Shown: positions 320 through 13,498 of the stretch, piece by piece
Position numbering within the stretch: the stretch's first letter is position 1
How the letters are laid out: the number at the start of each line of letters is the position of its first letter
Virus record (IMG/VR): IMGVR_UViG_3300042401_002002
Strand: one strand, 5' to 3'
Length of the DNA: 17,740 nucleotides
DNA from: a virus
Lineage: Duplodnaviria; Heunggongvirae; Uroviricota; Caudoviricetes
Program-made: the position numbers and the translations under genes
The notes under the pieces: model-generated
What the model was told of the DNA's origin: nothing
What the model saw: the letters and a program-made list of their open reading frames with translations, nothing else
Databases searched by the model: none

Positions 320-422
320 AAATATAAACCGTACAATGTTTGATTATATTGTACGGTTCAATAAACAATGTTAATCGAACATTGTTAAAAATAATTTGAA
401 AATAATAACAATGTTTTGTAAC
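320..422 (+). repeat. Twin-hairpin direct repeat, copy A
   Basis: About 100-nt near-identical copy at 2289-2394; stems 327-358 and 364-386. Confidence 0.9.
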
Positions 423-454
423 CTTATCAAAGTAATTTCGTTAAAGATAGAGTA
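417..454 (+). promoter_or_regulatory. Repeated promoter-like motif
   Basis: TGTAACCTT...TTTCGTTAAAGATAGAGTA upstream of ORF 515. Confidence 0.7.
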
Positions 455-484
455 TTAAGTTAAACAAACAAATCTAAACCTTTT

Positions 485-503
485 CTGTTACTAGGTTAAA
501 CAG
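485..503 (+). promoter_or_regulatory. 5'-leader hairpin (CTGTT/AACAG)
   Basis: TTTT-CTGTT-actaggtta-AACAG, ends 11 nt before ATG 515. Confidence 0.55.
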
Positions 504-514
504 TTTTAAAGTAT

Positions 515-697
515 ATGATTAAAGCATTAGTAAGTATCGTATTATTAGCACAATTAGTTTGTTTAGGTACTATGTTTTCTTCATGTACAATGAATGAAAC
601 ACACTATGGTAGTTCAACCCATAGTTACTACAAAAAAGACTTAAAAAAGGTTGTTTTGAGTAGTAACGTAAATAAATGTTCAAAAATTAGTAGATAA
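515..697 (+). CDS. Small putative lipoprotein
   Basis: Basic N-terminus, hydrophobic stretch, FSS-C24 lipobox-like motif. Confidence 0.6.
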   Translation: MIKALVSIVLLAQLVCLGTMFSSCTMNETHYGSSTHSYYKKDLKKVVLSSNVNKCSKISR

Positions 698-699
698 AA

Positions 700-738
700 C
701 AAAACTTTATTTGTAAGTTTGCGTTAAAGATAAAGTAT
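700..738 (+). promoter_or_regulatory. Repeated promoter-like motif (contains TAnnTTTG)
   Basis: CAAAACTTT...TAAGTTTGCGTTAAAGATAAAGTA. Confidence 0.65.
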
Positions 739-766
739 TCAATTAAACAATTAAATTATTAAGATT

Positions 767-1135
767 ATGGCAACTCGTAGCAGAATAGCATTTGAAGAAA
801 ATAATGAGATAAAATCAATTTATTGTCATTGGGACGGTTATTTGTCAAACAATGGTAAAATATTATTTGAAAACTATACAACACTTGACAAAGTTAAAGA
901 GTTAATTAGTTTAGGAGAGTTAAGTTCTTTAAAAGAAACAATCGAAGAAACTAAAGAAAATAGTTATCATATTAAACAAAATGAAAATATTAACATTGTT
1001 ACAAGTTCAGATGTAAAAGAATATTCAAAAGTATTTGAAGAGTATAATTATCTATTTAAAGACAATGTTTGGTATTTGGTTAATGATAATTTATCATTGG
1101 TTGCATTGAGTGAATATAGAAACTCCTCAAGATAG
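767..1135 (+). CDS. Conserved phage hypothetical protein (MATR..SIYCHWDGY), paralog of 7799
   Basis: AAGATT-ATG start; MATRS and H-x-DGY motifs shared with ORF 7799. Confidence 0.85.
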   Translation: MATRSRIAFEENNEIKSIYCHWDGYLSNNGKILFENYTTLDKVKELISLGELSSLKETIEETKENSYHIKQNENINIVTSSDVKEYSKVFEEYNYLFKDNVWYLVNDNLSLVALSEYRNSSR

Positions 1136-1170
1136 TAAAAGTACAATGTTTAAAAATAATAACAATGTTT

Positions 1171-1208
1171 TGAAACATTGTTTATAAAATTAACGTATAA
1201 GAAGTATA
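1171..1208 (+). promoter_or_regulatory. Repeated promoter-like motif
   Basis: TGAAACATT...TAACGTATAAGAAGTATA. Confidence 0.75.
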
Positions 1209-1219
1209 ACTAAACTTTT

Positions 1220-1235
1220 CAGTTGTTAGTAACTG
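1220..1235 (+). promoter_or_regulatory. 5'-leader hairpin, covariant copy (CAGTT/AACTG)
   Basis: TTTT-CAGTTG-ttag-TAACTG, ends 11 nt before ATG 1247. Confidence 0.6.
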
Positions 1236-1246
1236 TATTAAAGATT

Positions 1247-1477
1247 ATGACCACAGAAGAAAAAAATCAAGCATTAAATAATGCTTTAAGAAGTTTTGGA
1301 TATAGACAAGATTTATTTATCCATACAGTTGGTAAGGACTTATTTATTATTGCCAGTAAAAATGAAGTAGGTGGATTAAATACGTTTGGTTTGGCTTATA
1401 ACTACAAAGAAATGAATTTATTTCTTAAAGCTTATAATATAGGTTTTAATAACAATACATCACTAAAATTAATTTAA
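1247..1477 (+). CDS. Hypothetical protein (76 aa)
   Basis: Start moved from TTG 1223 to the in-frame AAGATT-ATG at 1247. Confidence 0.8.
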   Translation: MTTEEKNQALNNALRSFGYRQDLFIHTVGKDLFIIASKNEVGGLNTFGLAYNYKEMNLFLKAYNIGFNNNTSLKLI

Positions 1478-1491
1478 AAACAATTAACACA

Positions 1492-1632
1492 ATGTTACAG
1501 ATATTTATCAAATCAACAAACATTTTACCATTAAAAGAAATTGTTTGTCAAGTGTTAAAATCACAACCAAAATGTTCAAGCTATAACAATGCTATTAACA
1601 TTAATAGTAAACAAAATATTAACCGTAGATAA
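1492..1632 (+). CDS. Possible 46-aa hypothetical protein
   Basis: ATG-to-TAA ORF filling the gap between ORFs 1247 and 1641. Confidence 0.35.
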   Translation: MLQIFIKSTNILPLKEIVCQVLKSQPKCSSYNNAININSKQNINRR

Positions 1633-1640
1633 CCAAGATT

Positions 1641-2099
1641 ATGGAAACGACAATTTTAAAAAGAATATCGCCACAAAAATTAGCAGTAATGTTCCATGAC
1701 CATGCTGATAAAATCAATATTAGGTATTTCAATGCTTTGACTAAAGAAGAAATAAACGAACATAATGACCACAATGTTTTTACTTTTGAAGTTAAGGTAA
1801 GGCACAATGAAAATGAAAACCCTAATAAGCTTTTCAACAATGTTTTAAAAATAATCAATCAACCAAAAAGAAACATTGTTAAAACCAATAACAACAATGT
1901 TTTTAAACAAACTTCATTGTGTAAACAGGAAAGAATTAGTTTAGTTTCATTGCGTACTGATTTAATTAAAAAGATAGGTACAAATGATTTAAATGTTATT
2001 GATAGTTACATTATACCATTGTATAACGAACAAAGTAATTCAGTTTATTTTGTTGATGAAACAAGTTATTCAAGTGATGAAAGAGCTATTATTCTGTAA
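1641..2099 (+). CDS. Hypothetical protein
   Basis: AAGATT-ATG start, 152 aa; contains three AACAWTGTT sites. Confidence 0.75.
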   Translation: METTILKRISPQKLAVMFHDHADKINIRYFNALTKEEINEHNDHNVFTFEVKVRHNENENPNKLFNNVLKIINQPKRNIVKTNNNNVFKQTSLCKQERISLVSLRTDLIKKIGTNDLNVIDSYIIPLYNEQSNSVYFVDETSYSSDERAIIL

Positions 2100-2127
2100 C
2101 AACAATGTTAAAATAATAACAATGTTT

Positions 2128-2165
2128 TGCAACAATGTTTGTAATATTAACGTATAAGAAGTATA
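2128..2165 (+). promoter_or_regulatory. Repeated promoter-like motif
   Basis: TGCAACAAT...TAACGTATAAGAAGTATA. Confidence 0.75.
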
Positions 2166-2196
2166 AATAATTCAACCACAAACCAAATAAAGTAAA

Positions 2197-2289
2197 ATGA
2201 ATAAGTATAACAATATCCAGGATTTTGATGATTTGCCACATGGTAAAATAAAAGTAACTAAACCTAAAGTAAAGAAGTTTAAAGGTTAA
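2197..2289 (+). CDS. 30-aa peptide with basic tail (MNKYNNIQDFDDLPHGKIKVTKPKVKKFKG)
   Basis: Only ORF between motif 2128 and the twin hairpin at 2289; below the track's size cutoff. Confidence 0.6.
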   Translation: MNKYNNIQDFDDLPHGKIKVTKPKVKKFKG

Positions 2290-2394
2290 AATATAAACTT
2301 AACAATGTTTGATTATGTTGTTAAGTTCAAGAAACAATGTTAGTCGAACATTGTTTAAAAAAATAATTTGAAAATAATAACATTCTTTTGAAAC
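2289..2394 (+). repeat. Twin-hairpin direct repeat, copy B
   Basis: Matches 320-422; stems 2296-2327 and 2332-2356. Confidence 0.9.
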
Positions 2395-2462
2395 ATTGTT
2401 TGTGTTTACAAGGTACTATTAGTAGAAAAACTAAGGACTTTGTTTTAGAAAAATGTTAATAT

Positions 2463-2540
2463 ATGAATATTATTTATTATGTTGGAATACAAATATTGAT
2501 TGGTGTTTATTGTGGTAAAAAGTTAAGTGAAATAGTTTAA
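2463..2540 (+). CDS. 25-aa hydrophobic peptide (MNIIYYVGIQILIGVYCGKKLSEIV)
   Basis: ATG-to-TAA ORF directly upstream of ORF 2557. Confidence 0.45.
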   Translation: MNIIYYVGIQILIGVYCGKKLSEIV

Positions 2541-2556
2541 GTTAATTAAAGTAAAT

Positions 2557-2742
2557 ATGGAGTTAAAAGATTTAAGAAAATTGTACAAAGGTTTAATGGA
2601 ATACATTGATAGTTCAGAAGAGAACTTTAATAAACCTTTAAAAACAAATATAACTGATTATTTGGGTTTAAAGTTTGGTAATAATGATGCAGAACGTGAA
2701 GAAATTTTTACGAACTACATTATTGGTAGATTAGCTAGATAA
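2557..2742 (+). CDS. Hypothetical protein
   Basis: ORF track, 61 aa. Confidence 0.75.
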   Translation: MELKDLRKLYKGLMEYIDSSEENFNKPLKTNITDYLGLKFGNNDAEREEIFTNYIIGRLAR

Positions 2743-2996
2743 ATCCGTAGAAATAACAATGTTTTTGATTTTATTAAAATTTAAACAATGTTATTTTTTT
2801 GCATTTTAACATTGTTTTATAATGCAACAATGTTATTATACAATGTTTCAGAATTAACAATATGTTAATAATGTACCATTAAATACATATTATACTGATT
2901 ACTAAGGTATTAAAAAGTACAATAAATGTATGTTAAATTTAGTAAAAAATTCTTACATTTTATATGTTATATTTTAACAAAAAATACTAGTTTTAT

Positions 2997-3034
2997 AACA
3001 ACTTTATTACTACATTTGCGTTAAAGAATGTATA
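2997..3034 (+). promoter_or_regulatory. Repeated promoter-like motif (contains TAnnTTTG)
   Basis: ACAACTTT...TACATTTGCGTTAAAGAATGTATA. Confidence 0.65.
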
Positions 3035-3059
3035 ACTAAAAACAAGATATAAATACTAT

Positions 3060-3985
3060 ATGAAAACAGAATTTAATTTAAGATTATTAGAACAGTTTAG
3101 TTCAGCAAATTTACATACTAAAATTAGTTTACTTGAAATTTCCACAATAGATAATATGTCTATTGGTATGGAATGGGTAAAAAATAATGTTGAAGCAGTA
3201 TTGGTTGGTGGTACGGCAGTTGTTAATTATTTATCAAAAGGTAGAGATTTAACACCCGATGTTGATTATTTAGTAAGTAATATTAATGATGTTAAAACTA
3301 AACTAACAAAAGATAATATTTTAGACCCAAACGTAGGTAATAAAAGTCTAAATTCTTTGATTTTAAAATCAAAGATACAAACTGTTATAGGTGGGGTTTC
3401 AGTTGATATTATTAGACCATTACATATTCTATTTAAAATATGTATCCAATGGACTTTAACCTCCATTGAGCCTACGGCTACGGCTCATATTGTGTACTTA
3501 AATTCCACAACTACATTTTAACACTCATTACAACTATCTATTTGATTCAACAAGCATAGCTTGTTGTCTTGTTAGTGTAATTTGTCTAAAACACTCAATG
3601 ATTTTACGTTTACGAGAGCAAAAACCTTTAGGTTTTTGATTTGTAAACAACCTAATATCAATATGTCAAAGATTCAACAACCTTTTGTTATTGAAGCAAC
3701 GTAAAAAAACTATGGTGGGTCTTAGCTTACGTTACATTTTAATTTAAATAGTGTAAAATTAAATAAATTTCATTAAATTTAAACAAAATTAATGATTGTA
3801 TTTAACCCGAATTACTTGCGATACTTAAATTAGATTTAGGTAGAACTAAAGATATTGACGATGGCTTTGCTTTATTGCAAAGTGACAAGGTTAATAAGAA
3901 AAATTATATTACCTTTGTTGAAGGTTTAAAGAAATTTCTTAATGATTACGAATCATTAATAAGTTACCAAGATTTAATTCAATAA
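3060..3985 (+). pseudogene. Pol-beta-superfamily nucleotidyltransferase interrupted by a 389-nt insertion
   Basis: N-part has VLVGGTAVVNY...R.LTPDVDYLV (GG + DxD). C-part 3806-3985 reads PELLAILKLDLGRTKDIDDG. Removing 3417-3805 restores one 178-aa frame (..VSVDIIRPELLAILK..). Confidence 0.8.
3417..3805 (-). mobile_element. Putative non-autonomous IS607/IS200-IS605-type remnant
   Basis: Disrupts the NTase. ACC (GGT on - strand) occurs at both junctions. Minus-strand fragments LKCSCG (3521-3504) and AVGSMEVKVH (3478-3449) resemble a TnpB C-terminus. Several hairpins. Confidence 0.5.
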
Positions 3986-3987
3986 CT

Positions 3988-4176
3988 ATGGAAAATTATA
4001 ATATATACATTTATTTGTTCAATGTAGTAACAAACCTAATTATACTAGGTTTTAGTTTAAGTTGTTATTTAAGGTGGAAAACAAAAAATTGGTTGTTTTT
4101 TATCTTAGCTAACATATTCTTAATTACTTATTTTAGTATAAAAATATACCAAGTAACGCAACCTTTATTAAAGTAA
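3988..4176 (+). CDS. Small membrane protein (two hydrophobic segments)
   Basis: 62 aa with two long hydrophobic stretches separated by RWKTKNW. Confidence 0.7.
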   Translation: MENYNIYIYLFNVVTNLIILGFSLSCYLRWKTKNWLFFILANIFLITYFSIKIYQVTQPLLK

Positions 4177-4199
4177 TAACGTATATAACCAAAAGTATA
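4157..4199 (+). promoter_or_regulatory. Repeated promoter-like motif
   Basis: CGCAACCTTT...TAACGTATA..AAGTATA; overlaps the end of ORF 3988. Confidence 0.7.
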
Positions 4200-4204
4200 A
4201 TATT

Positions 4205-4657
4205 ATGCAAACAATCAAAAATTATTTTGTTTCTTCATTGACTAATAAAGGAATAAACGAAGTAGAAGCAAACAACTTAGTTGAACAAGCTAAAACAGAT
4301 ATTGAGATATATTTGAATAGTTCAATGGATAAACAATTTTCATTATCCAAAAATGAAATTAAAGATGTTAGAACTATATTAAGAAATATTGCAGTTCTAA
4401 ACCTTAGAAAATCAATTAGAGAAAAACCATTTGCAAATTTAAAAAGCAAAGAAGTAACCAACGTACTTAAAGGTTTAAATATAACAGTTAACAGAAAATA
4501 CAGTAAAAAAAGTGTTTCTATGTTAAAGATATTTGGCGAAAGACATAATGTATTAAATAACAAGTTAGGTTTGCCACATAAACATATTATGTTTTATAGC
4601 AAATCAAATGTTTATATTGCTAAACATAAAAAATTAGGTTTTAAATTTCTTGACTAA
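4205..4657 (+). CDS. Hypothetical basic protein
   Basis: ORF track, 150 aa, downstream of a motif copy. Confidence 0.8.
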   Translation: MQTIKNYFVSSLTNKGINEVEANNLVEQAKTDIEIYLNSSMDKQFSLSKNEIKDVRTILRNIAVLNLRKSIREKPFANLKSKEVTNVLKGLNITVNRKYSKKSVSMLKIFGERHNVLNNKLGLPHKHIMFYSKSNVYIAKHKKLGFKFLD

Positions 4658-4660
4658 TAA

Positions 4661-4696
4661 CGCAACCTTATTCAGAATAACAACGTATAAGATGTA
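4661..4696 (+). promoter_or_regulatory. Repeated promoter-like motif
   Basis: CGCAACCTTA...CAACGTATAAGATGTA. Confidence 0.75.
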
Positions 4697-4722
4697 AGTT
4701 TAAACATATAAATATTAAGAGT

Positions 4723-4908
4723 ATGGAACTAAAAGAAATGATTTATAATAATGTAAAAGTTACATTATTAATTCAATACAAAGATAATTACAATGTACAA
4801 GAAGATGTTACATACAAATATTTTCTTAACGGTTTCGAGGTTAAAGACTTAACAACAATTAAACCAATTCATTTAGAAATCTTTGAGTTACTAAAGAAAT
4901 ATAACTAA
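4723..4908 (+). CDS. Hypothetical protein
   Basis: ORF track, 61 aa. Confidence 0.75.
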   Translation: MELKEMIYNNVKVTLLIQYKDNYNVQEDVTYKYFLNGFEVKDLTTIKPIHLEIFELLKKYN

Positions 4909-4911
4909 GTT

Positions 4912-4980
4912 ATGACTTACTTATTAATAACAATATTATTTTGTTGGTTGTTATTTGAAATTATAACTAACAAACATTGA
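4912..4980 (+). CDS. 22-aa hydrophobic peptide (MTYLLITILFCWLLFEIITNKH)
   Basis: ATG 3 nt after the previous stop; TGA directly precedes a terminator hairpin. Confidence 0.55.
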   Translation: MTYLLITILFCWLLFEIITNKH

Positions 4981-4984
4981 TAAC

Positions 4985-5021
4985 AAAACCTTAATTATTG
5001 ACTTAATTAAGGTTTTATTTT
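4985..5021 (+). terminator. Intrinsic terminator-like hairpin
   Basis: AAAACCTTAATTA-ttgact-TAATTAAGGTTTT perfect 13-bp stem followed by ATTTT. Confidence 0.7.
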
Positions 5022-5040
5022 AAAAATAAATTAAGTTTAA

Positions 5041-5078
5041 TGCAACCTTTTATATTTTACCAACGTATAAGAAGTATA
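5041..5078 (+). promoter_or_regulatory. Repeated promoter-like motif
   Basis: TGCAACCTTT...CCAACGTATAAGAAGTATA. Confidence 0.8.
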
Positions 5079-5095
5079 TTTAAACAACCAAGATT

Positions 5096-5266
5096 ATGTT
5101 AAAGAAACAAGAAGAACTTAAGGAATTAATCCGAGATAGTTATTATGAAGGTGCAAAATCCTTTAGAAAACATTGTAAAGATAAACCAAATGAATGGTCT
5201 TATATAATGGACGATGCAGTTGATTATTCAAATGAAATTGTTGACAAACTAAAAGAAAATGACTGA
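5096..5266 (+). CDS. 56-aa hypothetical protein (MLKKQEELKELIRDSYYEG...)
   Basis: AAGATT-ATG start; overlaps ORF 5259 by 8 nt; missed by the track. Confidence 0.8.
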   Translation: MLKKQEELKELIRDSYYEGAKSFRKHCKDKPNEWSYIMDDAVDYSNEIVDKLKEND

Positions 5267-5477
5267 CAAAGAGTTTTATTTACATAAACATTATGGGATT
5301 GATGTAACTAAAGAAGTTGTTTCTAAGCCAAAGGAAACCAACAAAGTATATATGTTGGTTCATAACCAAACTAAACAAATCTTAATAAAAGGTTTATATA
5401 GTTTGTGTAAATGGAAGTACAACCAACTTAATACATTTGAACGCAAAAGTTATTCAATAAAACAGTATAAAAATTAA
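5259..5477 (+). CDS. Hypothetical protein
   Basis: ORF track, 72 aa, translationally coupled to ORF 5096. Confidence 0.8.
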   Translation: MTDKEFYLHKHYGIDVTKEVVSKPKETNKVYMLVHNQTKQILIKGLYSLCKWKYNQLNTFERKSYSIKQYKN

Positions 5478-5569
5478 TAATGGGAAATTTATCGTTTCTA
5501 ATACCAACTGAAAATATTAATACATGAAGGTATTCACCCCGAATATGATAAATTTAATTAAGAATGTTG

Positions 5570-5603
5570 TGTAACATTTATTCAAAATTAACGTATAAGA
5601 ACT
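5570..5603 (+). promoter_or_regulatory. Repeated promoter-like motif
   Basis: TGTAACATTT...TAACGTATAAGAACT. Confidence 0.75.
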
Positions 5604-5615
5604 AAAAACAAGTAT

Positions 5616-5951
5616 ATGAAAAACCAAGATTTAATTTTAGATTGCCCTATTGAATTTATAGAAAATTCTTTAGAAATTGCTTTAAATCGTTTTGAAGGTA
5701 ATAGTAATAAAATACCTAAACATAGTGATTTAATTAATGTTTACTTTGCAGGTGCTACATTATGTTTAGATGTTTACATTAATTGTAAAACAGATAAAGA
5801 TGTTATTACTATTAGTTATAACAAACAAACATTTGGTTATTTTAGTGGTGGTTATCGTAGGTTATTATCTATCAAAGCCTTAAAAACTTTAGATAAATTA
5901 ATTAAAGTAGCTAAAATTAATCACGAACAAATTAGTTGGTTAAAACTGTAA
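5616..5951 (+). CDS. Hypothetical protein
   Basis: ORF track, 111 aa; its stop TAA lies inside the next motif's GTAACC. Confidence 0.8.
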   Translation: MKNQDLILDCPIEFIENSLEIALNRFEGNSNKIPKHSDLINVYFAGATLCLDVYINCKTDKDVITISYNKQTFGYFSGGYRRLLSIKALKTLDKLIKVAKINHEQISWLKL

Positions 5952-5984
5952 CCTTTATTATTAAACCAACGTATAAATAGTATA
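5947..5984 (+). promoter_or_regulatory. Repeated promoter-like motif
   Basis: TGTAACCTTT...CCAACGTATAAATAGTATA. Confidence 0.8.
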
Positions 5985-5990
5985 TCTATT

Positions 5991-6221
5991 ATGGAAACAA
6001 CTTACAGAGAATGGCTTCAAAATAATGAAGAAGCTAAAGAATTAATTATTAACGAACATTATAATTTAATACCTAAATCAGCATTAGAGTATATTGATAA
6101 GTTACAGGAACGTAGTGATAAATTAGAAAACGATAATAAAGATTTACTTAAAACTGTTTCTATATTACGTGGATACCTTACTGAATTACAAGAAGAAATT
6201 AAAGTCCTTAAAAATAAGTAA
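5991..6221 (+). CDS. Hypothetical coiled-coil protein
   Basis: 76 aa with heptad-like L/I pattern in the C-terminal half. Confidence 0.8.
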   Translation: METTYREWLQNNEEAKELIINEHYNLIPKSALEYIDKLQERSDKLENDNKDLLKTVSILRGYLTELQEEIKVLKNK

Positions 6222-6225
6222 TACC

Positions 6226-6534
6226 ATGTCTATTCCAATTAACTCAAACATTGATTATAATAAATTGATTAATCAATTAGATTCTATTTCACTTAACAAA
6301 CTTAATACCAATATGAATACAATTCCAATGGCAGACCCAAGAGATTCATTTAACTATGAAGAATTTGAAAAAGAAATGTTGAATAATACAAATTCTTTTT
6401 TCAACAAAAGACAACCAAGTTATAATAAGTCTATCCACAAACCAACTAACCCAATTGATGTTTTAACTAGGAAATTAGAACGTGAGAGAAAACGTGCTAT
6501 TACTAGGGAACAGTATGGAGTTAATATTTATTAA
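6226..6534 (+). CDS. Hypothetical Asn-rich protein (102 aa)
   Basis: Start moved to the in-frame ATG 6226, 4 nt after the upstream stop. Confidence 0.7.
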   Translation: MSIPINSNIDYNKLINQLDSISLNKLNTNMNTIPMADPRDSFNYEEFEKEMLNNTNSFFNKRQPSYNKSIHKPTNPIDVLTRKLERERKRAITREQYGVNIY

Positions 6535-6536
6535 TT

Positions 6537-6737
6537 ATGAATAAACTAAGAGATTACTTTGTAAGATTATTAATTGATTTTTGTTGTGGAAAAGCATTGA
6601 AGTACCAACAAAGAACTGATTTGTTACATAATACAAAAGGTACTAACTATATTTATAGTATAGGTAGTAATGTTGTTCAACGTGATAAGTGGTTGAAAAG
6701 AATTTATTTGTTAGAAAAATTCATAGGTAAAGCTTAA
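6537..6737 (+). CDS. Hypothetical protein
   Basis: ORF track, 66 aa. Confidence 0.75.
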   Translation: MNKLRDYFVRLLIDFCCGKALKYQQRTDLLHNTKGTNYIYSIGSNVVQRDKWLKRIYLLEKFIGKA

Positions 6738-6741
6738 TAAC

Positions 6742-6882
6742 ATGATGCAGATAGATAAAAGGTTTAAAGAAGAGAAACTAAGAATATTTAAATGTAATGT
6801 TTCTATTAAAGAATTTACTAAACTTGAAAATGTTGAAAAACGATTTATATATGTAGATAATCTACATATATTCAGTAAATAA
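6742..6882 (+). CDS. 46-aa hypothetical protein (MMQIDKRFKEEKLRIF...)
   Basis: Fills the gap between ORF 6537 and the terminator at 6897. Confidence 0.6.
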   Translation: MMQIDKRFKEEKLRIFKCNVSIKEFTKLENVEKRFIYVDNLHIFSK

Positions 6883-6896
6883 CCAACTAACAATAT

Positions 6897-6936
6897 AAAA
6901 AACTTTCTTATTAATTTAGGAAAGTTTTTTTGTTTT
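6897..6936 (+). terminator. Intrinsic terminator
   Basis: AAAAAACTTTCTTA-ttaatt-TAGGAAAGTTTTTT followed by TGTTTT. Confidence 0.75.
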
Positions 6937-6949
6937 ATTGGCACATAAG

Positions 6950-6986
6950 TGTAACCTTTATGTTTTATCAGCGTATAAGTAGTATA
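6950..6986 (+). promoter_or_regulatory. Repeated promoter-like motif
   Basis: TGTAACCTTT...CAGCGTATAAGTAGTATA. Confidence 0.8.
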
Positions 6987-7002
6987 TTTAAACAACAAGA
7001 TT

Positions 7003-7350
7003 ATGGAAAACCAAACTAGAGTAATAAAGTTAAAAGAACTAAATTGTCAAGCCAAAAGTATGTTGGCTAGTGAATTTAATAAACTATTAGATGAGTGGGA
7101 TAGACAAAATTATATTAATTACAGGGAATTGTTATCGGAAAGTTATAGACACGTTTTAGATTATTATAATTTATCCGTATTCTTTCCACAACAAAAAATT
7201 TGGCAAAAACGTTTAAAAGATTCAGAAAAAGAGTTTAATAAACTTCTTAAACAACAAAATAAGATTTTAGTTAAACTAACTAAAATCAACAAACAAAGAA
7301 GGTTATTAAGAATTACTAAACCTAACAAACAACTTAAAATTAATTTCTAA
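7003..7350 (+). CDS. Hypothetical protein
   Basis: AAGATT-ATG start, 115 aa. Confidence 0.8.
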   Translation: MENQTRVIKLKELNCQAKSMLASEFNKLLDEWDRQNYINYRELLSESYRHVLDYYNLSVFFPQQKIWQKRLKDSEKEFNKLLKQQNKILVKLTKINKQRRLLRITKPNKQLKINF

Positions 7351-7354
7351 AATT

Positions 7355-7501
7355 ATGCCAAGAGAACCCTTGCCCTTAAAAAGAGAATACAAAGCTGATG
7401 TTACTATTAACATTGCAGATATTTTCAGAAACCCCGATATACAAAACGAGGTAATAAAAGAATGTAAAAAATTAAAAACTAATCGAACTAAAAGACTATG
7501 A
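7355..7501 (+). CDS. 48-aa hypothetical protein (MPREPLPLKREYKADV...)
   Basis: Starts 4 nt after the upstream stop; ATGA overlap with ORF 7498. Confidence 0.7.
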   Translation: MPREPLPLKREYKADVTINIADIFRNPDIQNEVIKECKKLKTNRTKRL

Positions 7502-7758
7502 AAACAGTAGAACAAAAAAGACTTGAAACAATTCAAAGTAAAATTGATAAACAAGTAAAAATCTTAACAGAACTTAAAAGTAAATCACTAACTAAGTTCT
7601 TAAGTCATAATGATATTGTTAAAATTAACAATAAATTTCAAGCTAGGTTATTGAATTACTTAGAAGAAGAAAAAAGAAATGTTAATTATTTGCAAGAACC
7701 AAATAAATTTAATAATATTGAAGAAAATATTAGATTTGTTGAAACCTTTGTAGATTAA
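7498..7758 (+). CDS. Hypothetical protein
   Basis: ORF track, 86 aa. Confidence 0.8.
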   Translation: MKTVEQKRLETIQSKIDKQVKILTELKSKSLTKFLSHNDIVKINNKFQARLLNYLEEEKRNVNYLQEPNKFNNIEENIRFVETFVD

Positions 7759-7777
7759 GTACGTAAAAGACTATATA
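7741..7777 (+). promoter_or_regulatory. Repeated promoter-like motif
   Basis: GAAACCTTT...GTACGTAAAAGACTATATA; overlaps the end of ORF 7498. Confidence 0.7.
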
Positions 7778-7798
7778 ACAATTAAACAAATTAAGATT

Positions 7799-8305
7799 AT
7801 GGCAACTAGAGCAACAATAAGTATTGAATTAGAAAACAAAAGCATTTTAACCGTTTTTTTATCACAAGATGGTTATCCTATGAATGATAGTAAAGATTTT
7901 GGTTGTGGTTTAACTTTATTAAAACATTATAATAAAGTAGATTTAGTGAATGAATTAATTTCACATGGAAATATTTATTCATTACAAGAAAAAATTGAAA
8001 AAGACCCAACAAAACCACATCGAATTGAATTAGAAAAAAGACAAAGAGATGTTTGTTTTTTCTTTAATAGAGATTATAAACAAGAAAATATTGAACCTAT
8101 AATTTTCTTTTCTGAAAAAGATTACAAAAAACGTAATGAAATGCAAGATTGGAATTATTTGTTTAAAAATAATGAATGGTATGTTTACTTAACTAAGTAT
8201 GATACTAATAACATAAAATATAAAAATAAGTTTGTTAAACTTAAAGAATTTATTGAAAATTCTGTAAAATATGTTGGTATAAATGAAACTGAAAACGTTT
8301 ATTAA
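7799..8305 (+). CDS. Conserved phage hypothetical protein (MATR..DGYP), paralog of 767
   Basis: MATRA, DGYP, ELISHGNIYSL and WNYLFKNNEWY align with ORF 767. Confidence 0.85.
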   Translation: MATRATISIELENKSILTVFLSQDGYPMNDSKDFGCGLTLLKHYNKVDLVNELISHGNIYSLQEKIEKDPTKPHRIELEKRQRDVCFFFNRDYKQENIEPIIFFSEKDYKKRNEMQDWNYLFKNNEWYVYLTKYDTNNIKYKNKFVKLKEFIENSVKYVGINETENVY

Positions 8306-8321
8306 ACGTATAAGAACTATA
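8284..8321 (+). promoter_or_regulatory. Repeated promoter-like motif
   Basis: TGAAACTG...TAAACGTATAAGAACTATA; overlaps the end of ORF 7799. Confidence 0.7.
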
Positions 8322-8338
8322 AATTAAAACTTAAGATT

Positions 8339-8485
8339 ATGGAAAATAAAATTAAAAAAGTATTAATTTGCAATAACTGTAAAGATATTTGGATAGCACC
8401 AATTAATAAATGTAAGTGTGGTTGTACTACGTTAACAGAAACGCATCTAAGTAATATAAATCTTGCACAAAATTTTAATAAATAA
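8339..8485 (+). CDS. 48-aa Cys-rich putative zinc-ribbon protein
   Basis: AAGATT-ATG start; CNNC...CKCGC; missed by the track. Confidence 0.75.
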   Translation: MENKIKKVLICNNCKDIWIAPINKCKCGCTTLTETHLSNINLAQNFNK

Positions 8486-8487
8486 TT

Positions 8488-8679
8488 ATGGAATACAACC
8501 AACAAATAACACATTGGTTAAGCAACTATGTTGAATTAGCTAACAAATTTAATGAAGAAGGAAACAAGGAACTTGCAGAATATTGGAAGGGTCAAGTATT
8601 TGGTACAGTCAAAACTGCTGAATTAATACTAGGCAAGGAAAATGTTGATTTTTCTTGGTATTTAAGACAATTGCCTTAA
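8488..8679 (+). CDS. Hypothetical protein
   Basis: ORF track, 63 aa. Confidence 0.8.
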   Translation: MEYNQQITHWLSNYVELANKFNEEGNKELAEYWKGQVFGTVKTAELILGKENVDFSWYLRQLP

Positions 8680-8689
8680 AATAAAAAAC

Positions 8690-8743
8690 CGAAAACAAAC
8701 AAAATATTTATCTAAATATTGAAACTTATTTTGTTTGTTTTCG
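8690..8743. repeat. 16-17 bp inverted repeat
   Basis: CGAAAACAAACAAAAT (8690-8705) / ATTTTGTTTGTTTTCG (8728-8743). Confidence 0.85.
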
Positions 8744-8758
8744 TTAAACAACATATAA
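8720..8758 (+). promoter_or_regulatory. Repeated promoter-like motif (variant)
   Basis: TGAAACTTA...TTTCGTTAAACAACATATA; 21-nt G-to-CG register. Confidence 0.55.
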
Positions 8759-8772
8759 AGCAAAACATAAAA

Positions 8773-9042
8773 ATGAAAAGAAAATATATAAACAATCCGA
8801 ATAGTAAAATAAAACCTTTTATTATTAACCCAGTAAAACAATCAATGATTAATAACGAAACAGTTATATTCAGCGAAACATTTGAAGATGCAATAAAAAC
8901 TTATGCAGAACAAAGAAACAAAACATTTACAGAAACTTGGTTTGATATTCAAGACAAACCTAGAAATGCTAATTTAAATAATAGCTTTCAAATAAGAAAT
9001 AGGCACGATGTAAAAGTGTTTGCTTTGTTGGACTTAAAATAA
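8773..9042 (+). CDS. Hypothetical protein (89 aa)
   Basis: Start moved from TTG 8719 to the in-frame ATG 8773 downstream of the motif. Confidence 0.75.
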   Translation: MKRKYINNPNSKIKPFIINPVKQSMINNETVIFSETFEDAIKTYAEQRNKTFTETWFDIQDKPRNANLNNSFQIRNRHDVKVFALLDLK

Positions 9043-9064
9043 ATTAAAAATATTTGCTTAAGTT

Positions 9065-9101
9065 TGTAACCTTATCAAATAATCAACGTATAATAACTAT
9101 A
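9065..9101 (+). promoter_or_regulatory. Repeated promoter-like motif
   Basis: TGTAACCTTATCAAATAATCAACGTATAATAACTATA. Confidence 0.8.
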
Positions 9102-9120
9102 AATTAACTAATAAACTTTT

Positions 9121-9136
9121 CTGTTGAATGTAACAG
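9121..9136 (+). promoter_or_regulatory. 5'-leader hairpin
   Basis: TTTT-CTGTTG-aatg-TAACAG, ends 12 nt before ATG 9149. Confidence 0.6.
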
Positions 9137-9148
9137 TACTCAAAGATT

Positions 9149-9607
9149 ATGGAAAAAATAGAAAAAAGAATTATCGGTTTTCACACAGGTAGAGGTGGTC
9201 GATTTTATAACGGTGGTCATACAGTTTGTATTGGGGAAACCAACATAAATAATTTTACCAATGATTTATTTGATAGATATGAAAATGAATTTGAATTACG
9301 TAAGTTAATTGGTAAAAGAAATAACCTAAATAATTTAGCTGATGAAAATATTGAACTACTAGCAGGAAAATTAAATTTTAATTTAGGTAAAAAAGTATGG
9401 TTTGATTGTAACAGTAACCCAGTTGGTTTAGATGTTAATAATGAAGGTATTGGCACTATTGATAATGACGGAATTTATGATACATTATCTTGTAAATACT
9501 TAGAAGACCTTTCGGATACTGAACTTAAATTAATATTAGAATTTCAAGGTTACATTGATAGTGAAATTATTAATTTTTGTAAAGAAAAATTAGAAATATT
9601 TGCTTAA
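9149..9607 (+). CDS. Phage hypothetical protein (FHTGRGGRFYNGGH motif)
   Basis: AAGATT-ATG start, 152 aa, Gly/Arg-rich N-terminal motif. Confidence 0.85.
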   Translation: MEKIEKRIIGFHTGRGGRFYNGGHTVCIGETNINNFTNDLFDRYENEFELRKLIGKRNNLNNLADENIELLAGKLNFNLGKKVWFDCNSNPVGLDVNNEGIGTIDNDGIYDTLSCKYLEDLSDTELKLILEFQGYIDSEIINFCKEKLEIFA

Positions 9608-9610
9608 GTT

Positions 9611-9647
9611 TGTAACCTTATTAAAGAACCAACGTATAAGAAGTATA
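9611..9647 (+). promoter_or_regulatory. Repeated promoter-like motif
   Basis: TGTAACCTTA...CCAACGTATAAGAAGTATA. Confidence 0.8.
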
Positions 9648-9666
9648 TCTAAACAATAAAAAGAAT

Positions 9667-9906
9667 ATGTTCAATTTATTCAAGAAGAAAAGAAACAAGC
9701 AAACTATATGGATAGCTTGTGATAACGACAATAATTATTATCTATTTGATAATAAACCAATAAAAGTTTATAAATCATGGGTTTGTACAGAAGGTACAAT
9801 GTTGTATATTAGTTCAACTATTTACATGATGTTAGTTAAACAATTCGATTTACCTATAATAACAAGTAGTAGTGAACCAATTGAAATTATTATTAAACAA
9901 ATCTAA
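9667..9906 (+). CDS. Phage hypothetical protein
   Basis: ORF track, 79 aa (WIACDNDNNYYLFDNKP). Confidence 0.8.
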   Translation: MFNLFKKKRNKQTIWIACDNDNNYYLFDNKPIKVYKSWVCTEGTMLYISSTIYMMLVKQFDLPIITSSSEPIEIIIKQI

Positions 9907-9908
9907 TT

Positions 9909-10190
9909 ATGCCTTACCCAAATTATACCTCCGAAATTTACCCTATCTTAGTTAATCTAACAGATAGTGAATTATTAATGATTAGTAATGATTCAATTAT
10001 TAGTGATAAAACGTTTACTAACATTGTAGGTTATCAAACATTGTATAACAACATTGTTAATTATCAAACCTCAAAAGGTTTTAGAACTGATACATATATT
10101 ATTAAATCAATGATTGGTAATTGTATTATTCATTATTGTGGCATGAAGTACTTAAATAATATAGCTAAAGAAGTTTTTGATAAAATTTAA
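9909..10190 (+). CDS. Hypothetical protein
   Basis: ORF track, 93 aa. Confidence 0.75.
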   Translation: MPYPNYTSEIYPILVNLTDSELLMISNDSIISDKTFTNIVGYQTLYNNIVNYQTSKGFRTDTYIIKSMIGNCIIHYCGMKYLNNIAKEVFDKI

Positions 10191-10199
10191 TATTACAAC

Positions 10200-10427
10200 A
10201 TGATAGTTACTGAACTAACAAATTCTCAATTGGTTTTCTTATCTAAAGAAATTAGTACAATGTCTAATTTAGATAAACCTAGTGAACATAAACGTAGTTT
10301 TTTATTGAATGAAATTTGGAAATTTTATAAGTTAATAAATTTCCATGATACATTTATCTCAATAAAACATACGGTAAAAGCAGAAATAATTCACAGAATT
10401 AATACAGATAAAATGAAACTTATTTAG
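10200..10427 (+). CDS. Hypothetical protein
   Basis: ORF track, 75 aa. Confidence 0.75.
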   Translation: MIVTELTNSQLVFLSKEISTMSNLDKPSEHKRSFLLNEIWKFYKLINFHDTFISIKHTVKAEIIHRINTDKMKLI

Positions 10428-10450
10428 TTTCTTAACGTAAAAGTAGTATA
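10414..10450 (+). promoter_or_regulatory. Repeated promoter-like motif
   Basis: TGAAACTTA...TAACGTAAAAGTAGTATA; overlaps the end of ORF 10200. Confidence 0.75.
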
Positions 10451-10468
10451 TTTAAACGACCAAAGATT

Positions 10469-10765
10469 ATGTCTTATATTTCAAAATTATTCATTAAGTC
10501 TTTAACATCAAAAGACAAAACTAAGCAAGAAAAAGTTGCTAATTTATTTGCAGTTAATCAAAATTGTGAATTTACACAAACAATTGCAATCAACAAACAA
10601 CCAAAGGATAAAAAATTTCCTGTACATTTATTTACGGTTACAATCTTTCAAAACAACATTAGTTTGTTGAAAACCAACGATGCAACTGAAAAAGAATATA
10701 ATGATATTTTGTTAGCTATTAAAACAAAATTTCCAAAAAATAATGTTATGTTTGTTAAGAATTAA
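10469..10765 (+). CDS. Hypothetical protein
   Basis: AAGATT-ATG start, 98 aa. Confidence 0.8.
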   Translation: MSYISKLFIKSLTSKDKTKQEKVANLFAVNQNCEFTQTIAINKQPKDKKFPVHLFTVTIFQNNISLLKTNDATEKEYNDILLAIKTKFPKNNVMFVKN

Positions 10766-10769
10766 AACC

Positions 10770-10958
10770 ATGACAGGAAGACGTTTATACCGTGAATTTG
10801 CTCAAAGTAAAGGCAAAGAAGCAAAAGAATTTGTATGTATCAAAGAAGAAATGTATAATATTGATACTCTAATCACTAAAGATAATAAAGGTAATGAAGA
10901 ACATACGACAATAAATTACAAAGAATTAGTTCATTGGATAATTAAAAATATTTTGTAA
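10770..10958 (+). CDS. Hypothetical protein (62 aa)
   Basis: Start moved to the in-frame ATG 10770; stop lies inside the next motif's GTAACC. Confidence 0.75.
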   Translation: MTGRRLYREFAQSKGKEAKEFVCIKEEMYNIDTLITKDNKGNEEHTTINYKELVHWIIKNIL

Positions 10959-10989
10959 CCTTATCAAATAACCAACGTATAAACCTATA
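10954..10989 (+). promoter_or_regulatory. Repeated promoter-like motif
   Basis: TGTAACCTTATCAAATAACCAACGTATAAACCTATA. Confidence 0.8.
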
Positions 10990-11005
10990 TAAACAAATAA
11001 AGATT

Positions 11006-11353
11006 ATGAAAATTTACATAATAACATTTATTAATGAGTTTGGTAATAAAACTACAATTTTTTCTAAAGGCTTTACAAAAGAAGAAGCTAAATTGAGGTT
11101 TATTGACGACTATGAATTACCCGAAAAAGTTAAAATAACTAAATGTATTTTAGCTAAAGATGGAGATTATGGTACTTTATCAGAAATGCCAAACCCATAC
11201 ATATTTAAGTTATTTAGTATATTGAAAAGAAATAATTGGATTGAACCAACTAAAAAAGAATTTCCTTCATATAGAGATAAAAATCCAAGTAAAAAGGTTT
11301 GGTTTGAAGATATTCATTTTATTTGGAGAAATTATGATATAAATTCTTTGTAA
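11006..11353 (+). CDS. Hypothetical protein
   Basis: AAGATT-ATG start, 115 aa. Confidence 0.8.
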   Translation: MKIYIITFINEFGNKTTIFSKGFTKEEAKLRFIDDYELPEKVKITKCILAKDGDYGTLSEMPNPYIFKLFSILKRNNWIEPTKKEFPSYRDKNPSKKVWFEDIHFIWRNYDINSL

Positions 11354-11356
11354 TTT

Positions 11357-11393
11357 TGCAACCTTATCAAATAACCAACGTATAAGTAGTATA
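11357..11393 (+). promoter_or_regulatory. Repeated promoter-like motif
   Basis: TGCAACCTTATCAAATAACCAACGTATAAGTAGTATA; 26 nt identical to the copy at 10954. Confidence 0.8.
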
Positions 11394-11413
11394 ATTAAAA
11401 ACTTAATCCTTTT

Positions 11414-11433
11414 CTGTTAACTAGGACAAACAG
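11414..11433 (+). promoter_or_regulatory. 5'-leader hairpin
   Basis: TTTT-CTGTT-aactaggaca-AACAG, ends 11 nt before ATG 11445. Confidence 0.55.
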
Positions 11434-11444
11434 TAATTAAAATT

Positions 11445-11921
11445 ATGTCAAACTACTGTGTTAATTACCTACAAATTATTGGAAATGATTCTAACGAAAT
11501 AGAAAGATTCCAAAACCTTATTACTAATAACAATGATAAAACCAATAATGGTTTATTGTTAGAAACAAAAACAACTAGTGAAGTTATCTTTGATGTTTAT
11601 ATCAATGATGACAATAGAATTGATTTCTTAACAAAATACACAACTAACATAGATATGTTCAAAGAATTGTCTGAATTATTTCCTACATTAACTATTAAGT
11701 TAGAATACATGGAACTAGGTTATGATGTTTTTGGTAAGGCTACATTTGAAAATGGTACTGTTAAACATAAACAATTAAGTGAAAGTGATTTTGAATTGAT
11801 TACAGAATGTTGCGATAGTGATGTTGATATTGAAACATACAAATATAAAGACTTTGAAAGCGAAAGTAGAGAAGAAGTTATAGAATATTTGTTTGAAGAC
11901 TTGTATAACGAATTTGTTTAA
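11445..11921 (+). CDS. DUF1281/YubB ferredoxin-like domain protein
   Basis: MSNYCVNYLQIIG N-terminus and LSELFPTLTIKLEYMELGYDVFG match my recollection of this family's pattern. Confidence 0.65.
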   Translation: MSNYCVNYLQIIGNDSNEIERFQNLITNNNDKTNNGLLLETKTTSEVIFDVYINDDNRIDFLTKYTTNIDMFKELSELFPTLTIKLEYMELGYDVFGKATFENGTVKHKQLSESDFELITECCDSDVDIETYKYKDFESESREEVIEYLFEDLYNEFV

Positions 11922-11942
11922 TTATTAAAATATAAGATTATC

Positions 11943-12404
11943 ATGTTAACCTTAGAAAAACCAAAACAGTTACTTTATTTGTGTTCAATTAAAGGTAAAG
12001 AAAACATTATCAGTAAGTTAAAACAAGATAATACTAGAATTAGTAACTATGTTTTAAAATCTTTAGAATGTCAATCAATTTTAGAAGATAGTTGTACATT
12101 AATAACCAACAAAGAATTATTAAAAGATTTGTTTAGTTATGTTATTGATGTTGCTCAAACAGCTAATGGTAAAATATATGATGCTGAAAATATTCATAGT
12201 TTTACTAAAAACGTACAACATAGTAATTTTGTTATCAATCAAATGAAACAAAATAAAGGTTTGTTTTATTATAACAAACTAAATGATGTTTATATTTATT
12301 TCTTACCAACTAGTTATTATTCACAAATAACACAAATGTTGGTTTGTACTAAAGATTTAGAAGATTACAAAGCGATTAATAACGATTTAAGCTTGTTGTT
12401 CTAA
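11943..12404 (+). CDS. Hypothetical protein, C-terminus INNDLSLLF
   Basis: ORF track, 153 aa. Confidence 0.8.
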   Translation: MLTLEKPKQLLYLCSIKGKENIISKLKQDNTRISNYVLKSLECQSILEDSCTLITNKELLKDLFSYVIDVAQTANGKIYDAENIHSFTKNVQHSNFVINQMKQNKGLFYYNKLNDVYIYFLPTSYYSQITQMLVCTKDLEDYKAINNDLSLLF

Positions 12405-12489
12405 TTAATACAAATGAAAACAATATTTATATTGTTGATTATATAGATAAAATTAAGTAACTTTAGACTATTTAAGTTTAAACAACTAA

Positions 12490-12717
12490 ATGGAAACTAA
12501 CTTAATCTTTAAAGAAAATATCACTAATAACAATATTTTAACTAAACTCAATAAAAAAACACAAGCTATTCTAGTAATAGATAATGACAGTTTTATTGAG
12601 TTTCTATCCAACGGAACTTTTTTTGTTCCAACTAATGAAAATGTAGGTATCAATTGCACCAACATTAAAGATGCAATTTATGAGATTGAACGAACTAAAA
12701 ATAAATTATTGGTTTAA
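12490..12717 (+). CDS. Hypothetical protein
   Basis: ORF track, 75 aa. Confidence 0.75.
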   Translation: METNLIFKENITNNNILTKLNKKTQAILVIDNDSFIEFLSNGTFFVPTNENVGINCTNIKDAIYEIERTKNKLLV

Positions 12718-12755
12718 TGCAACCTTTTATAAGGTTTACACGTTAAAGATGTATA
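12718..12755 (+). promoter_or_regulatory. Repeated promoter-like motif
   Basis: TGCAACCTTTTATAAGGTTTACACGTTAAAGATGTATA. Confidence 0.8.
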
Positions 12756-12776
12756 ACAATTAAACAAATTAAGATT

Positions 12777-13196
12777 ATGTCAACAGGAAGAAAAAGATTA
12801 AATGATGCGTTAAAGAAAGGTGAATTTTTTAACGCATTTAAAAATATAACGTATGATTATGATTCAAAATATATTCATATTATTGATAAAAATAAATTAA
12901 ATTTACTTTATGAATATGTTATAATTAATGCTGAAATATTAAATGGTAAAATGGATAGTATTGTAACGTATGGAACAGGTGCAACACATGAACAAAATAT
13001 TATTGATAAAGAAATAAATAATTTATTCATTGAAACAGTTAAAAAAGGAAAATGTTTATTCTTTTTAATGCCAAATAATGAATATATTGGTTTAGTACCT
13101 TTAGAAGAAAAATCTGAACTTCTTCAACCTAGTTTTACAGTTGAAGACTTTGAAAAATTTCAAGAAATTAATAAAGATTTAAGTTTATTATATTAA
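12777..13196 (+). CDS. Hypothetical protein, C-terminus INKDLSLLY
   Basis: AAGATT-ATG start, 139 aa. Confidence 0.8.
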   Translation: MSTGRKRLNDALKKGEFFNAFKNITYDYDSKYIHIIDKNKLNLLYEYVIINAEILNGKMDSIVTYGTGATHEQNIIDKEINNLFIETVKKGKCLFFLMPNNEYIGLVPLEEKSELLQPSFTVEDFEKFQEINKDLSLLY

Positions 13197-13201
13197 AAAT
13201 T

Positions 13202-13456
13202 ATGTTAACCGATAAGATTTTAAAACAAGCTAAAGTAATTAAGCAAAAAGAAAAATGTCCTTTTGTTCTTATTATAAAAGAAAAAATTGTGCCTTTATAT
13301 AATATGGAACAAAAACATTTTGTTGAACAAAATTTCATTAAAAGACAAAACTTAAGGTTGTTTGTATCTTTGTTAAATCATGTTTTAAAAACAAAAGAAA
13401 CTGATTATCAAAAACTTAAACAACTTTATGTTGAACAAGTAGAAATAATTGACTAA
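13202..13456 (+). CDS. Hypothetical protein
   Basis: ORF track, 84 aa. Confidence 0.75.
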   Translation: MLTDKILKQAKVIKQKEKCPFVLIIKEKIVPLYNMEQKHFVEQNFIKRQNLRLFVSLLNHVLKTKETDYQKLKQLYVEQVEIID

Positions 13457-13460
13457 TAAG

Positions 13461-13498
13461 TGTAACATTTTATAAGGTTTTCACGTTAAAGAATATAT
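13461..13498 (+). promoter_or_regulatory. Repeated promoter-like motif (last copy in window)
   Basis: TGTAACATTTTATAAGGTTTTCACGTTAAAGAATATAT. Confidence 0.75.

Follow-up and report, generated by a model that had tools for sequence, protein, structure and literature searches.

The nearest described architecture to the locus considered here is that of the promoter-early stem-loop (PeSL) cassettes of T4-type phages (Arbiol et al. 2010, PMC2839356), in which a repeated promoter module precedes small orphan genes in a plastic region, a stem-loop lies within the module, and repeats bracket whole cassettes. The nearest functional analogues are the translational operators of phage T4, namely the RegA sites, the gp43 hairpin operator and the gp32 pseudoknot (Uzan and Miller 2010, PMC3014915), by which early messenger RNAs (mRNAs) are controlled post-transcriptionally through leader elements near the start codon. 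The RegA regulon alone takes in about 30 unrelated genes (PMC3014915). The subject of this report is a short inverted repeat, CTTTTCWGTT followed after a gap of 6-10 nucleotides (nt) by AACWGT, with the two W bases complementary. It occurs upstream of four genes in a 17,740-nt stretch of viral DNA (Caudoviricetes; IMG/VR record IMGVR_UViG_3300042401_002002), referred to below as the window. The element is tentatively read, with a probability of roughly 0.4, as an RNA-level leader module that acts on translation initiation in a host whose start sites are free of Shine-Dalgarno (SD) sequences.

The likeness to PeSL cassettes lies in the arrangement of the parts. About 19 promoter modules, each ahead of a small ORF, are found within 13 kb of the window, and in this one window an exact 28-bp repeat pair encloses the cassette of the open reading frame (ORF) that starts at 9149. 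One PeSL subclass also has its stem-loop downstream of the -10 box (PMC2839356). The parts themselves differ. PeSL stem-loops are stable, often polyG/polyC, and function as terminators, whereas the stem-loops here are A-U rich, lack a U tract and are worth only -2 to -4 kcal/mol, so that the stable terminator stem-loop by which PeSL cassettes are defined is absent. In addition, the promoter here is phage-specific (GTAACCTT-N11-AACGTATAAG) rather than of the sigma-70 consensus, and a stem-loop is present in only four of the roughly 19 modules.

The T4 operators offer both a short hairpin (gp43) and a pseudoknot (gp32) for comparison. RegA sites, however, overlap or abut the AUG and are A+U rich and unstructured, whereas the element is an inverted repeat that ends 11-12 nt upstream of the start codon. 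Each of the gp43 and gp32 operators controls one gene only, with a conserved loop or pseudoknot sequence; the loops of the element, in contrast, range from 4 to 10 nt and share only 30-70% identity.

A repeated element at a fixed distance from four start codons

Exactly four matches to the element occur in the window, all on the + strand. The 10-mer CTTTTCWGTT, with starts at 480, 1215, 9116 and 11409, is found four times exactly on the + strand and never on the - strand, against a mean of 0.04 and a maximum of 2 in 2000 dinucleotide shuffles; for the full hairpin pattern the mean in 2000 such shuffles is 0.0005. The repeat is far above chance, and the element is a genuine repeated sequence. 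A covariance model (R1) built from the four copies scores its own copies at 40-46 bits and the next match in the window, inside a gene, at 19 bits.

The copies were first noticed in a sequence-only reading, and its description of them proved accurate: the four sites, their stems and positions, and the gaps of 11, 11, 12 and 11 nt to the ATG are as it gave them (Table 1), and each copy lies between a promoter-like box and an ATG (4/4). Protein comparison bears out its statement that the four downstream genes are unrelated, and its description of the starts as SD-free holds as well, an SD-like 4-mer being present at 1 of 46 starts in the window.

Conservation is unevenly distributed along the copies. 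Copy-to-copy identity is 83-100% in the arms, compared with 71-84% in the promoters, 39-68% in the spacers and 30-70% in the loops. The sole substitution in an arm, at site 2, is mirrored on the opposite arm, and no stem pair is broken in any copy; the T-A to A-T swap that had been reported between the leaders at 1220 and 9121 is real. Loop length does vary, as had also been reported. The distance from CWGTT to AACWG is 6 nt in both type B copies (sites 2 and 3), where the loop can be counted as 4 or 6 nt, and 9 and 10 nt in the type A copies (sites 1 and 4). The CTTTT tract is kept on the 5' side only, which makes the element asymmetric. While the distance from promoter box to stem drifts between 18 and 38 nt, the distance from stem to ATG is constant at 11-12 nt.

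The four hairpin sites are variants of a repeated promoter-leader cassette and not free-standing elements. One promoter-leader module precedes about 19 genes of the window (417-13560, + strand), and consists of a GTAACCTT-like box, about 11 nt, AACGTATAAG (or CGTTAAAG), AGTATA, a short A-rich leader that usually contains TAAAC, and AAGATT-ATG. The motif matches neither the sigma-70 consensus nor the Bacteroidota TTTG/TAnnTTTG consensus, and sigma-70-like matches are not enriched in the window. After the second box, the leader measures 45-68 nt in the four hairpin modules and 13-37 nt in the other 15. The extra length is made up of the U-rich arm and the loop, which lie between an upstream TAAAC and the AAC-containing 3' arm. 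This 3' arm is found near the place taken by TAAAC in the hairpin-less leaders, with its C at -14/-15 as against mostly -10 to -13.

The position of the transcription start can be estimated from a relative. An IMG/VR contig of 88 kb (G001; 32% G+C, 39 transfer RNAs (tRNAs); loci L006-L010, minus strand) carries the same promoter about 40 times, including directly before tRNA genes. Because the box there ends 5 nt before the mature 5' end of the tRNA, the transcription start is probably no more than about 6 nt from the box, and the element, lying farther downstream in the leader, would be inside the transcript. In its 32% G+C and its many tRNAs, G001 is similar to the clades of bS21-encoding lake phages of Bacteroidetes (PMC9723584).

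Table 1. Positions of the four copies of the element in the window, with their promoters, genes, alternative helices and the flanking repeat (bits are scores with covariance model R1; site energies are those of the stem at 37 C)
Feature	Position	Strand	Description
Promoter-like module, site 1	418-446	+	GTAACCTT 418-425, CGTTAAAG 439-446
Alternative helix, site 1	477-497	+	AACCT 477-481 with AGGTT 493-497; minimum free energy structure, -3.3 kcal/mol
Site 1, type A	480-503	+	CTTTTCTGTT 480-489; stem 485-489/499-503 (CTGTT/AACAG); 9-nt loop with CTAGG; last stem base 11 nt from ATG 515; 41.9 bits; -2.1 kcal/mol
ORF behind site 1	515-697	+	60 amino acids; lipoprotein-like signal (hydrophobic stretch, then FSSC); no family match
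Promoter box, site 2	1194-1201	+	CGTATAAG; AACAWTGTT palindrome pair in place of the upstream box
Site 2, type B	1215-1235	+	CTTTTCAGTT 1215-1224; stem 1220-1225/1230-1235 (CAGTTG/TAACTG), 6 bp including a closing G-U; A-T for T-A swap; 4-nt loop; 11 nt to ATG 1247; 46.1 bits; -3.5 kcal/mol
ORF behind site 2	1247-1477	+	76 amino acids; no family match
Exact 28-bp repeat	9048-9075 and 9594-9621	+	covers gene end and first promoter box
Promoter-like module, site 3	9066-9094	+	GTAACCTT 9066-9073, CGTATAAT 9087-9094
Site 3, type B	9116-9136	+	CTTTTCTGTT 9116-9125; stem 9121-9126/9131-9136 (CTGTTG/TAACAG); 4-nt loop; 12 nt to ATG 9149; 45.1 bits; -3.7 kcal/mol
ORF behind site 3	9149-9607	+	152 amino acids; no family match
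Promoter-like module, site 4	11358-11386	+	GCAACCTT 11358-11365, CGTATAAG 11379-11386
Alternative helix, site 4	11407-11426	+	TCCT 11407-11410 with AGGA 11423-11426
Site 4, type A	11409-11433	+	CTTTTCTGTT 11409-11418; stem 11414-11418/11429-11433 (CTGTT/AACAG); 10-nt loop with CTAGG; 11 nt to ATG 11445; 40.7 bits; -2.0 kcal/mol
ORF behind site 4	11445-11921	+	158 amino acids; DUF1281_C (Api92-like ferredoxin-like) domain

A proposed role in translation initiation

In Flavobacterium johnsoniae, A residues at -11 to -14 and low structure between -20 and +20 promote initiation, and domain 4 of bS1 has been placed near -12 to -15 (Baez et al. 2019, PMC6847099). The genes of the window appear to follow similar start rules. 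They share a Kozak-like context, AAGATT-ATG, with A at -6, -5 and -3, which together with the lack of SD sequences would fit a Bacteroidota host; the resemblance covers the A residues at -3 and -6 and the richness in A from -11 to -14. Under the Bacteroidota rules, initiation is reduced by structure between -20 and +20, and the 3' arm of the element occupies -16 to -12 before the AUG (-17 to -13 at one site).

On the preferred reading, the element is a conserved module of the 5' untranslated region in one subfamily of the repeated promoter-leader cassettes. In the transcript, a CUUUU tract would be followed by a short, weak stem-loop (CWGUU, loop, AACWG), whose 3' arm, placed over -16 to -12, would cover the A-rich initiation determinant or bS1 contact of an SD-free host. 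Pairing of the 5' arm with this stretch would lower or condition the initiation of the four genes, and might also alter the life of their mRNAs. The effect could come from base pairing by itself, or it could depend on a trans-acting factor that keeps the weak stem closed; a post-transcriptional regulon under such a factor, in line with the sequence-only reading, is possible. As for the CUUUU tract, it could form four further pairs, with AAAG at -7 to -4, or could be a landing site in single-stranded form. A leader stem-loop of this translation-tuning class, present in four copies in one phage with an SD-free host, is plausible, and it is on this reading that we infer folding in vivo and an effect on translation. 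Predicted accessibility at -16 to -12 is 0.44 in the four hairpin leaders and 0.80 in the 14 other leaders that reach this far (one-sided P = 0.004).

In a more specialized version of the model, the element would be a dedicated translational operator, a weak hairpin (a pseudoknot in two copies) that hides the A-rich -12 to -16 ribosome/bS1 contact of four early mRNAs and is either opened thermally or locked by a phage protein. This version is judged quite unlikely. If it were true, it would amount to a post-transcriptional regulon in a giant Bacteroidota phage, of a kind not yet described for the phylum.

Thermal opening brings to mind the FourU-type RNA thermometers, which are short, weak, A-U rich leader hairpins with a run of four U. 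The predicted behavior of the element is similar in that its CUUU may pair with AAAG at -7 to -4 and in that it would be stable at 5-15 C but only marginally so at 37 C. It differs in having no SD sequence to mask, and the added CUUU/AAAG helix gives no predicted gain in stability at 37 C. Lambda-type nut sites, which consist of boxA and a boxB hairpin, are another possible comparison, because they likewise present a conserved single-stranded box and then a 5-bp stem-loop, in a leader just downstream of early promoters. However, boxB loops are conserved and read by a protein, and nut sites keep no fixed distance from a start codon; the element has variable loops and a fixed distance to the ATG, and no terminator pattern was found downstream of it.

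Post-transcriptional gene control is little known in Bacteroidota and their phages, because Bacteroidota ribosomes ignore Shine-Dalgarno sequences. A discrete, repeated element over the A-rich determinant would provide a simple handle on structure at -12 to -16 in SD-free initiation, and would also reveal the way in which a giant phage sets the timing of some of its orphan early genes.

Support for folding and rival explanations

At 15 C the stems have predicted energies of -4.6 to -6.7 kcal/mol and so could form at lake temperatures. A number of results nevertheless weigh against the proposed role in initiation. At 37 C the stems are weak (-2.0 to -3.7 kcal/mol, with 2 G-C pairs each). When each leader is folded with 33 nt of coding sequence at this temperature, the claimed pairs have probabilities of 0.00-0.15 and other pairings win. 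Folding z-scores of -0.22 to +1.36 are no better than those of shuffles, and stems of at least 5 bp are found upstream of nearly all 46 genes. The description of the hairpin as covarying was overstated: a single compensatory pair occurs in one copy, and this double change, the only one in the 6 pairs of the 4 sequences, is equalled in 128 of 500 column shuffles. Covariation thus comes to one event per helix and is not significant in a formal test; the sequence repeat is significant, and the support for pairing is not. Most protein-bound RNA hairpins have conserved loops, whereas here the arms are invariant and the loops free.

The accessibility result is also less specific than it might appear. 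Shuffling the 5' arm and loop leaves predicted accessibility the same, with 0.22-0.83 of the shuffles at or below the native value. Because shuffled sequence gives equal openness, the gap between hairpin leaders and other leaders is for the most part an effect of length and composition, and any U-rich insert of such size would be expected to act similarly in silico. In this respect the comparison with Bacteroidota start rules is imperfect, as these rules describe a general tuning of initiation, whereas the window presents a discrete repeated element whose predicted accessibility is not specific to the native arm.

A further difficulty is that no copy beyond the four has been found in G001, IMG/VR, GTDB, JGI metagenomes or GenBank phages. 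The sequence-only reading had named the lack of other copies with covariation as grounds for giving up its claim, and none has so far been found in any collection searched. GenBank phages gave no match to the whole window by megablast, only chance matches to one leader in a distant blastn search, and no phage match to ORF 11445 by tblastn. Protein-guided locus searches with ORF 9149, ORF 11445 and alignment A1 yielded nothing in IMG/VR or GTDB genomes. Of two hairpin patterns run against IMG/VR, the first had 0 matches and the second 50 chance matches, mostly one coding stretch repeated across many contigs; a single promoter-plus-hairpin pattern returned 9 unrelated matches in JGI metagenomes, all without promoter context. 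Strict promoter patterns retrieved from IMG/VR one contig with the module, the G001 contig described above, plus one chance match (G002), and the promoter pattern was not found in GTDB genomes. G001 has the promoter and no hairpin (best match to model R1, E = 1.2), and shares no protein with the window. The absence of copies is nonetheless weak evidence, because the searches spanned neither the rest of the source genome nor the metagenomic contigs (P0002-P0006) that carry orthologues of ORF 11445.

Folding of a different kind is predicted for the type A copies. In these, the CTAGG motif shared by the loops supplies an AGG that pairs with a CCU farther upstream (Table 1), and this alternative helix shows an A-U to U-A swap between site 1 and site 4. 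The alternative helix and the claimed stem would be able to coexist only as a small H-type pseudoknot. A crude simulation of the swaps gave P ~0.05 for type A and 0.11-0.15 for type B, with the helices picked after inspection of the data. In type B the sixth pair is a G-U, which pairs only in RNA of the + strand; together with the asymmetry of the element, it would fit one strand of RNA, as opposed to a dyad in duplex DNA. No Rfam covariance model matched anywhere in the window (E up to 1).

Several other roles for a leader hairpin were considered and rejected. The element is not an intrinsic terminator or attenuator, as it has no U tract and a weak stem and is absent from a terminator scan. 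Nor is it a 5'-terminal stabilizer hairpin, because about 12-32 nt separate the inferred start of the transcript from the stem. Base pairing between the U-rich arm and the first part of the coding region is predicted for sites 2 and 3 only, and fails as a general reading. An upstream ORF is likewise out: ATG 1247 shares its reading frame with a TTG at 1223, but the TTG in the 5' arm of site 3 is out of frame. Finally, a general excess of hairpins that end 11-12 nt before starts is weak, such hairpins (at least 5 bp) preceding 10 of 42 other genes.

Much of the negative evidence above would be expected if the four copies simply marked a neutral subfamily of cassettes, that is, one promoter-leader variant spread by recombination, in the manner of PeSL shuffling, with a functionless inverted repeat. 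The promoter subtype AACCTTATCAAA is common to three of the four hairpin sites, and three of the four exact AACCTTATCAAA boxes in the window stand at hairpin sites; common descent of whole cassettes therefore probably explains part of the similarity between copies. The 28-bp repeat pair points the same way: between its two copies lies one cassette made up of the promoter, the hairpin leader and ORF 9149, the arrangement that would be expected if recombination between promoter repeats had inserted a cassette. The ubiquity of 5-bp hairpins in window DNA, the non-significant covariation, predicted folding no better than that of shuffles, and the absence of the element from the sole other phage contig found with the promoter all agree with neutrality. 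What neutrality does not readily account for is the pattern of change. Arms are better kept than loops, spacers and even the adjoining promoter boxes; loops have been replaced or resized with both arms intact; the single arm change is mirrored on the other arm; and the spacing to the ATG is held while the spacing to the promoter drifts by 20 nt. Neutral spread is on these grounds considered somewhat unlikely. Even as a mere subfamily mark, the element would document how promoter-leader modules diversify and spread in a phage lineage.

Near-invariant arms with free loops are also typical of half-sites, which raises the question of whether TTTTCWGTT and AACWGT are recognized in sequence by a phage or host protein, the complementarity reflecting a dimer and not a fold. 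The target could be single-stranded RNA, or it could be duplex DNA, with the element serving as a roadblock or as an activator site that follows the promoter. The location of the element just downstream of a promoter would suit such a site, as would the abundance in the window of AACAWTGTT, which shares the half-words AACA/TGTT and stands beside the promoters of sites 1 and 2. Yet the distance between arms shifts by 3-6 bp, up to about half a helical turn, which would misplace a rigid dimer; the flanks are asymmetric, with CTTTT on one side only; position is fixed relative to the ATG and not to the promoter; site 2 alters the same base in both half-sites; and all copies have one orientation. 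A sequence-read site, in either form of target taken together, is thus unlikely. The sequence-only reading had preferred RNA structure to a DNA operator on the strength of variable loop length. The preference survives in part: fixed ATG spacing, the asymmetry of the CTTTT tract, the G-U pair and loop variation would all fit an RNA-level role at the start codon better than a dyad DNA operator, and the weakness and non-dominance of the stems count on the other side.

Conserved arms with variable loops would also suit hairpin-reading recombinases, and the genes here do behave as cassettes. The element could in principle be a single-stranded DNA hairpin that functions outside gene expression, either as a cassette recombination site or as a hairpin promoter of the type used by the N4 virion RNA polymerase. 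This is very improbable. Integron attC sites are imperfect hairpins of 57-141 nt with R''/L'' and L'/R' cores (RYYYAAC ... GTTRRRY), while the element is only 16-20 nt long, has the opposite arm order (GTT ... AAC) and lacks a second pair of cores. Hairpin promoters of N4 have 3-nt loops. Moreover, the sole clear cassette boundary is at a promoter box and not at the hairpin, and the similarity between copies extends past both sides of the element.

Downstream genes and neighboring features

The window has 24% G+C and is crowded with small ORFs, of which nearly all lie on the + strand. Few of them have a family match: two belong to phrog_1987, a family of T4-type phages, and others match an HNH endonuclease, a TnpB-like protein and DUF1281_C. 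In family searches of the window ORFs, none matched an RNA-binding family. Among the genes behind the element, the 60-amino-acid product at site 1 may be a membrane or superinfection-exclusion type protein, judging from its signal. ORF 11445 has five orthologues in metagenomes (P0002-P0006), with 63-86% identity.

The AACAWTGTT palindromes are located at 402-418 and 1160-1183, on or beside the upstream promoter box of sites 1 and 2, and the pair at site 2 forms a perfect 10-bp inverted repeat. They have the half-words AACA/TGTT in common with the hairpin arms, and a consistent link between the two was not found. Another hairpin, at 10703-10730, has an 8-bp stem (AUUUUGUU, a 9-nt loop, AACAAAAU) and ends 12 nt before the ATG at 10743, inside the preceding ORF; its arms resemble those of the element (TTTT..GTT / AAC..AAAA).

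In G001, three leaders (L007:5845-5936 (-), L006:18472-18563 (-) and L006:10229-10320 (-)) contain, after the promoter and before the downstream gene, a conserved insert of about 45 nt, GGCUGGGUAA..AGGGUGCAGUAAUCCACACCUGCC. The insert is richer in G+C, has a weak consensus fold and no Rfam match, and may be an undescribed leader RNA.

At the far end of the window, the HNH endonuclease gene (16287-16757) is followed by the TnpB/OrfB_IS605-like gene, which runs off the window (16287-17738 for the two together). The best phage relatives of the TnpB-like gene, with 36-40% identity, come from Lak megaphages and other large phages.

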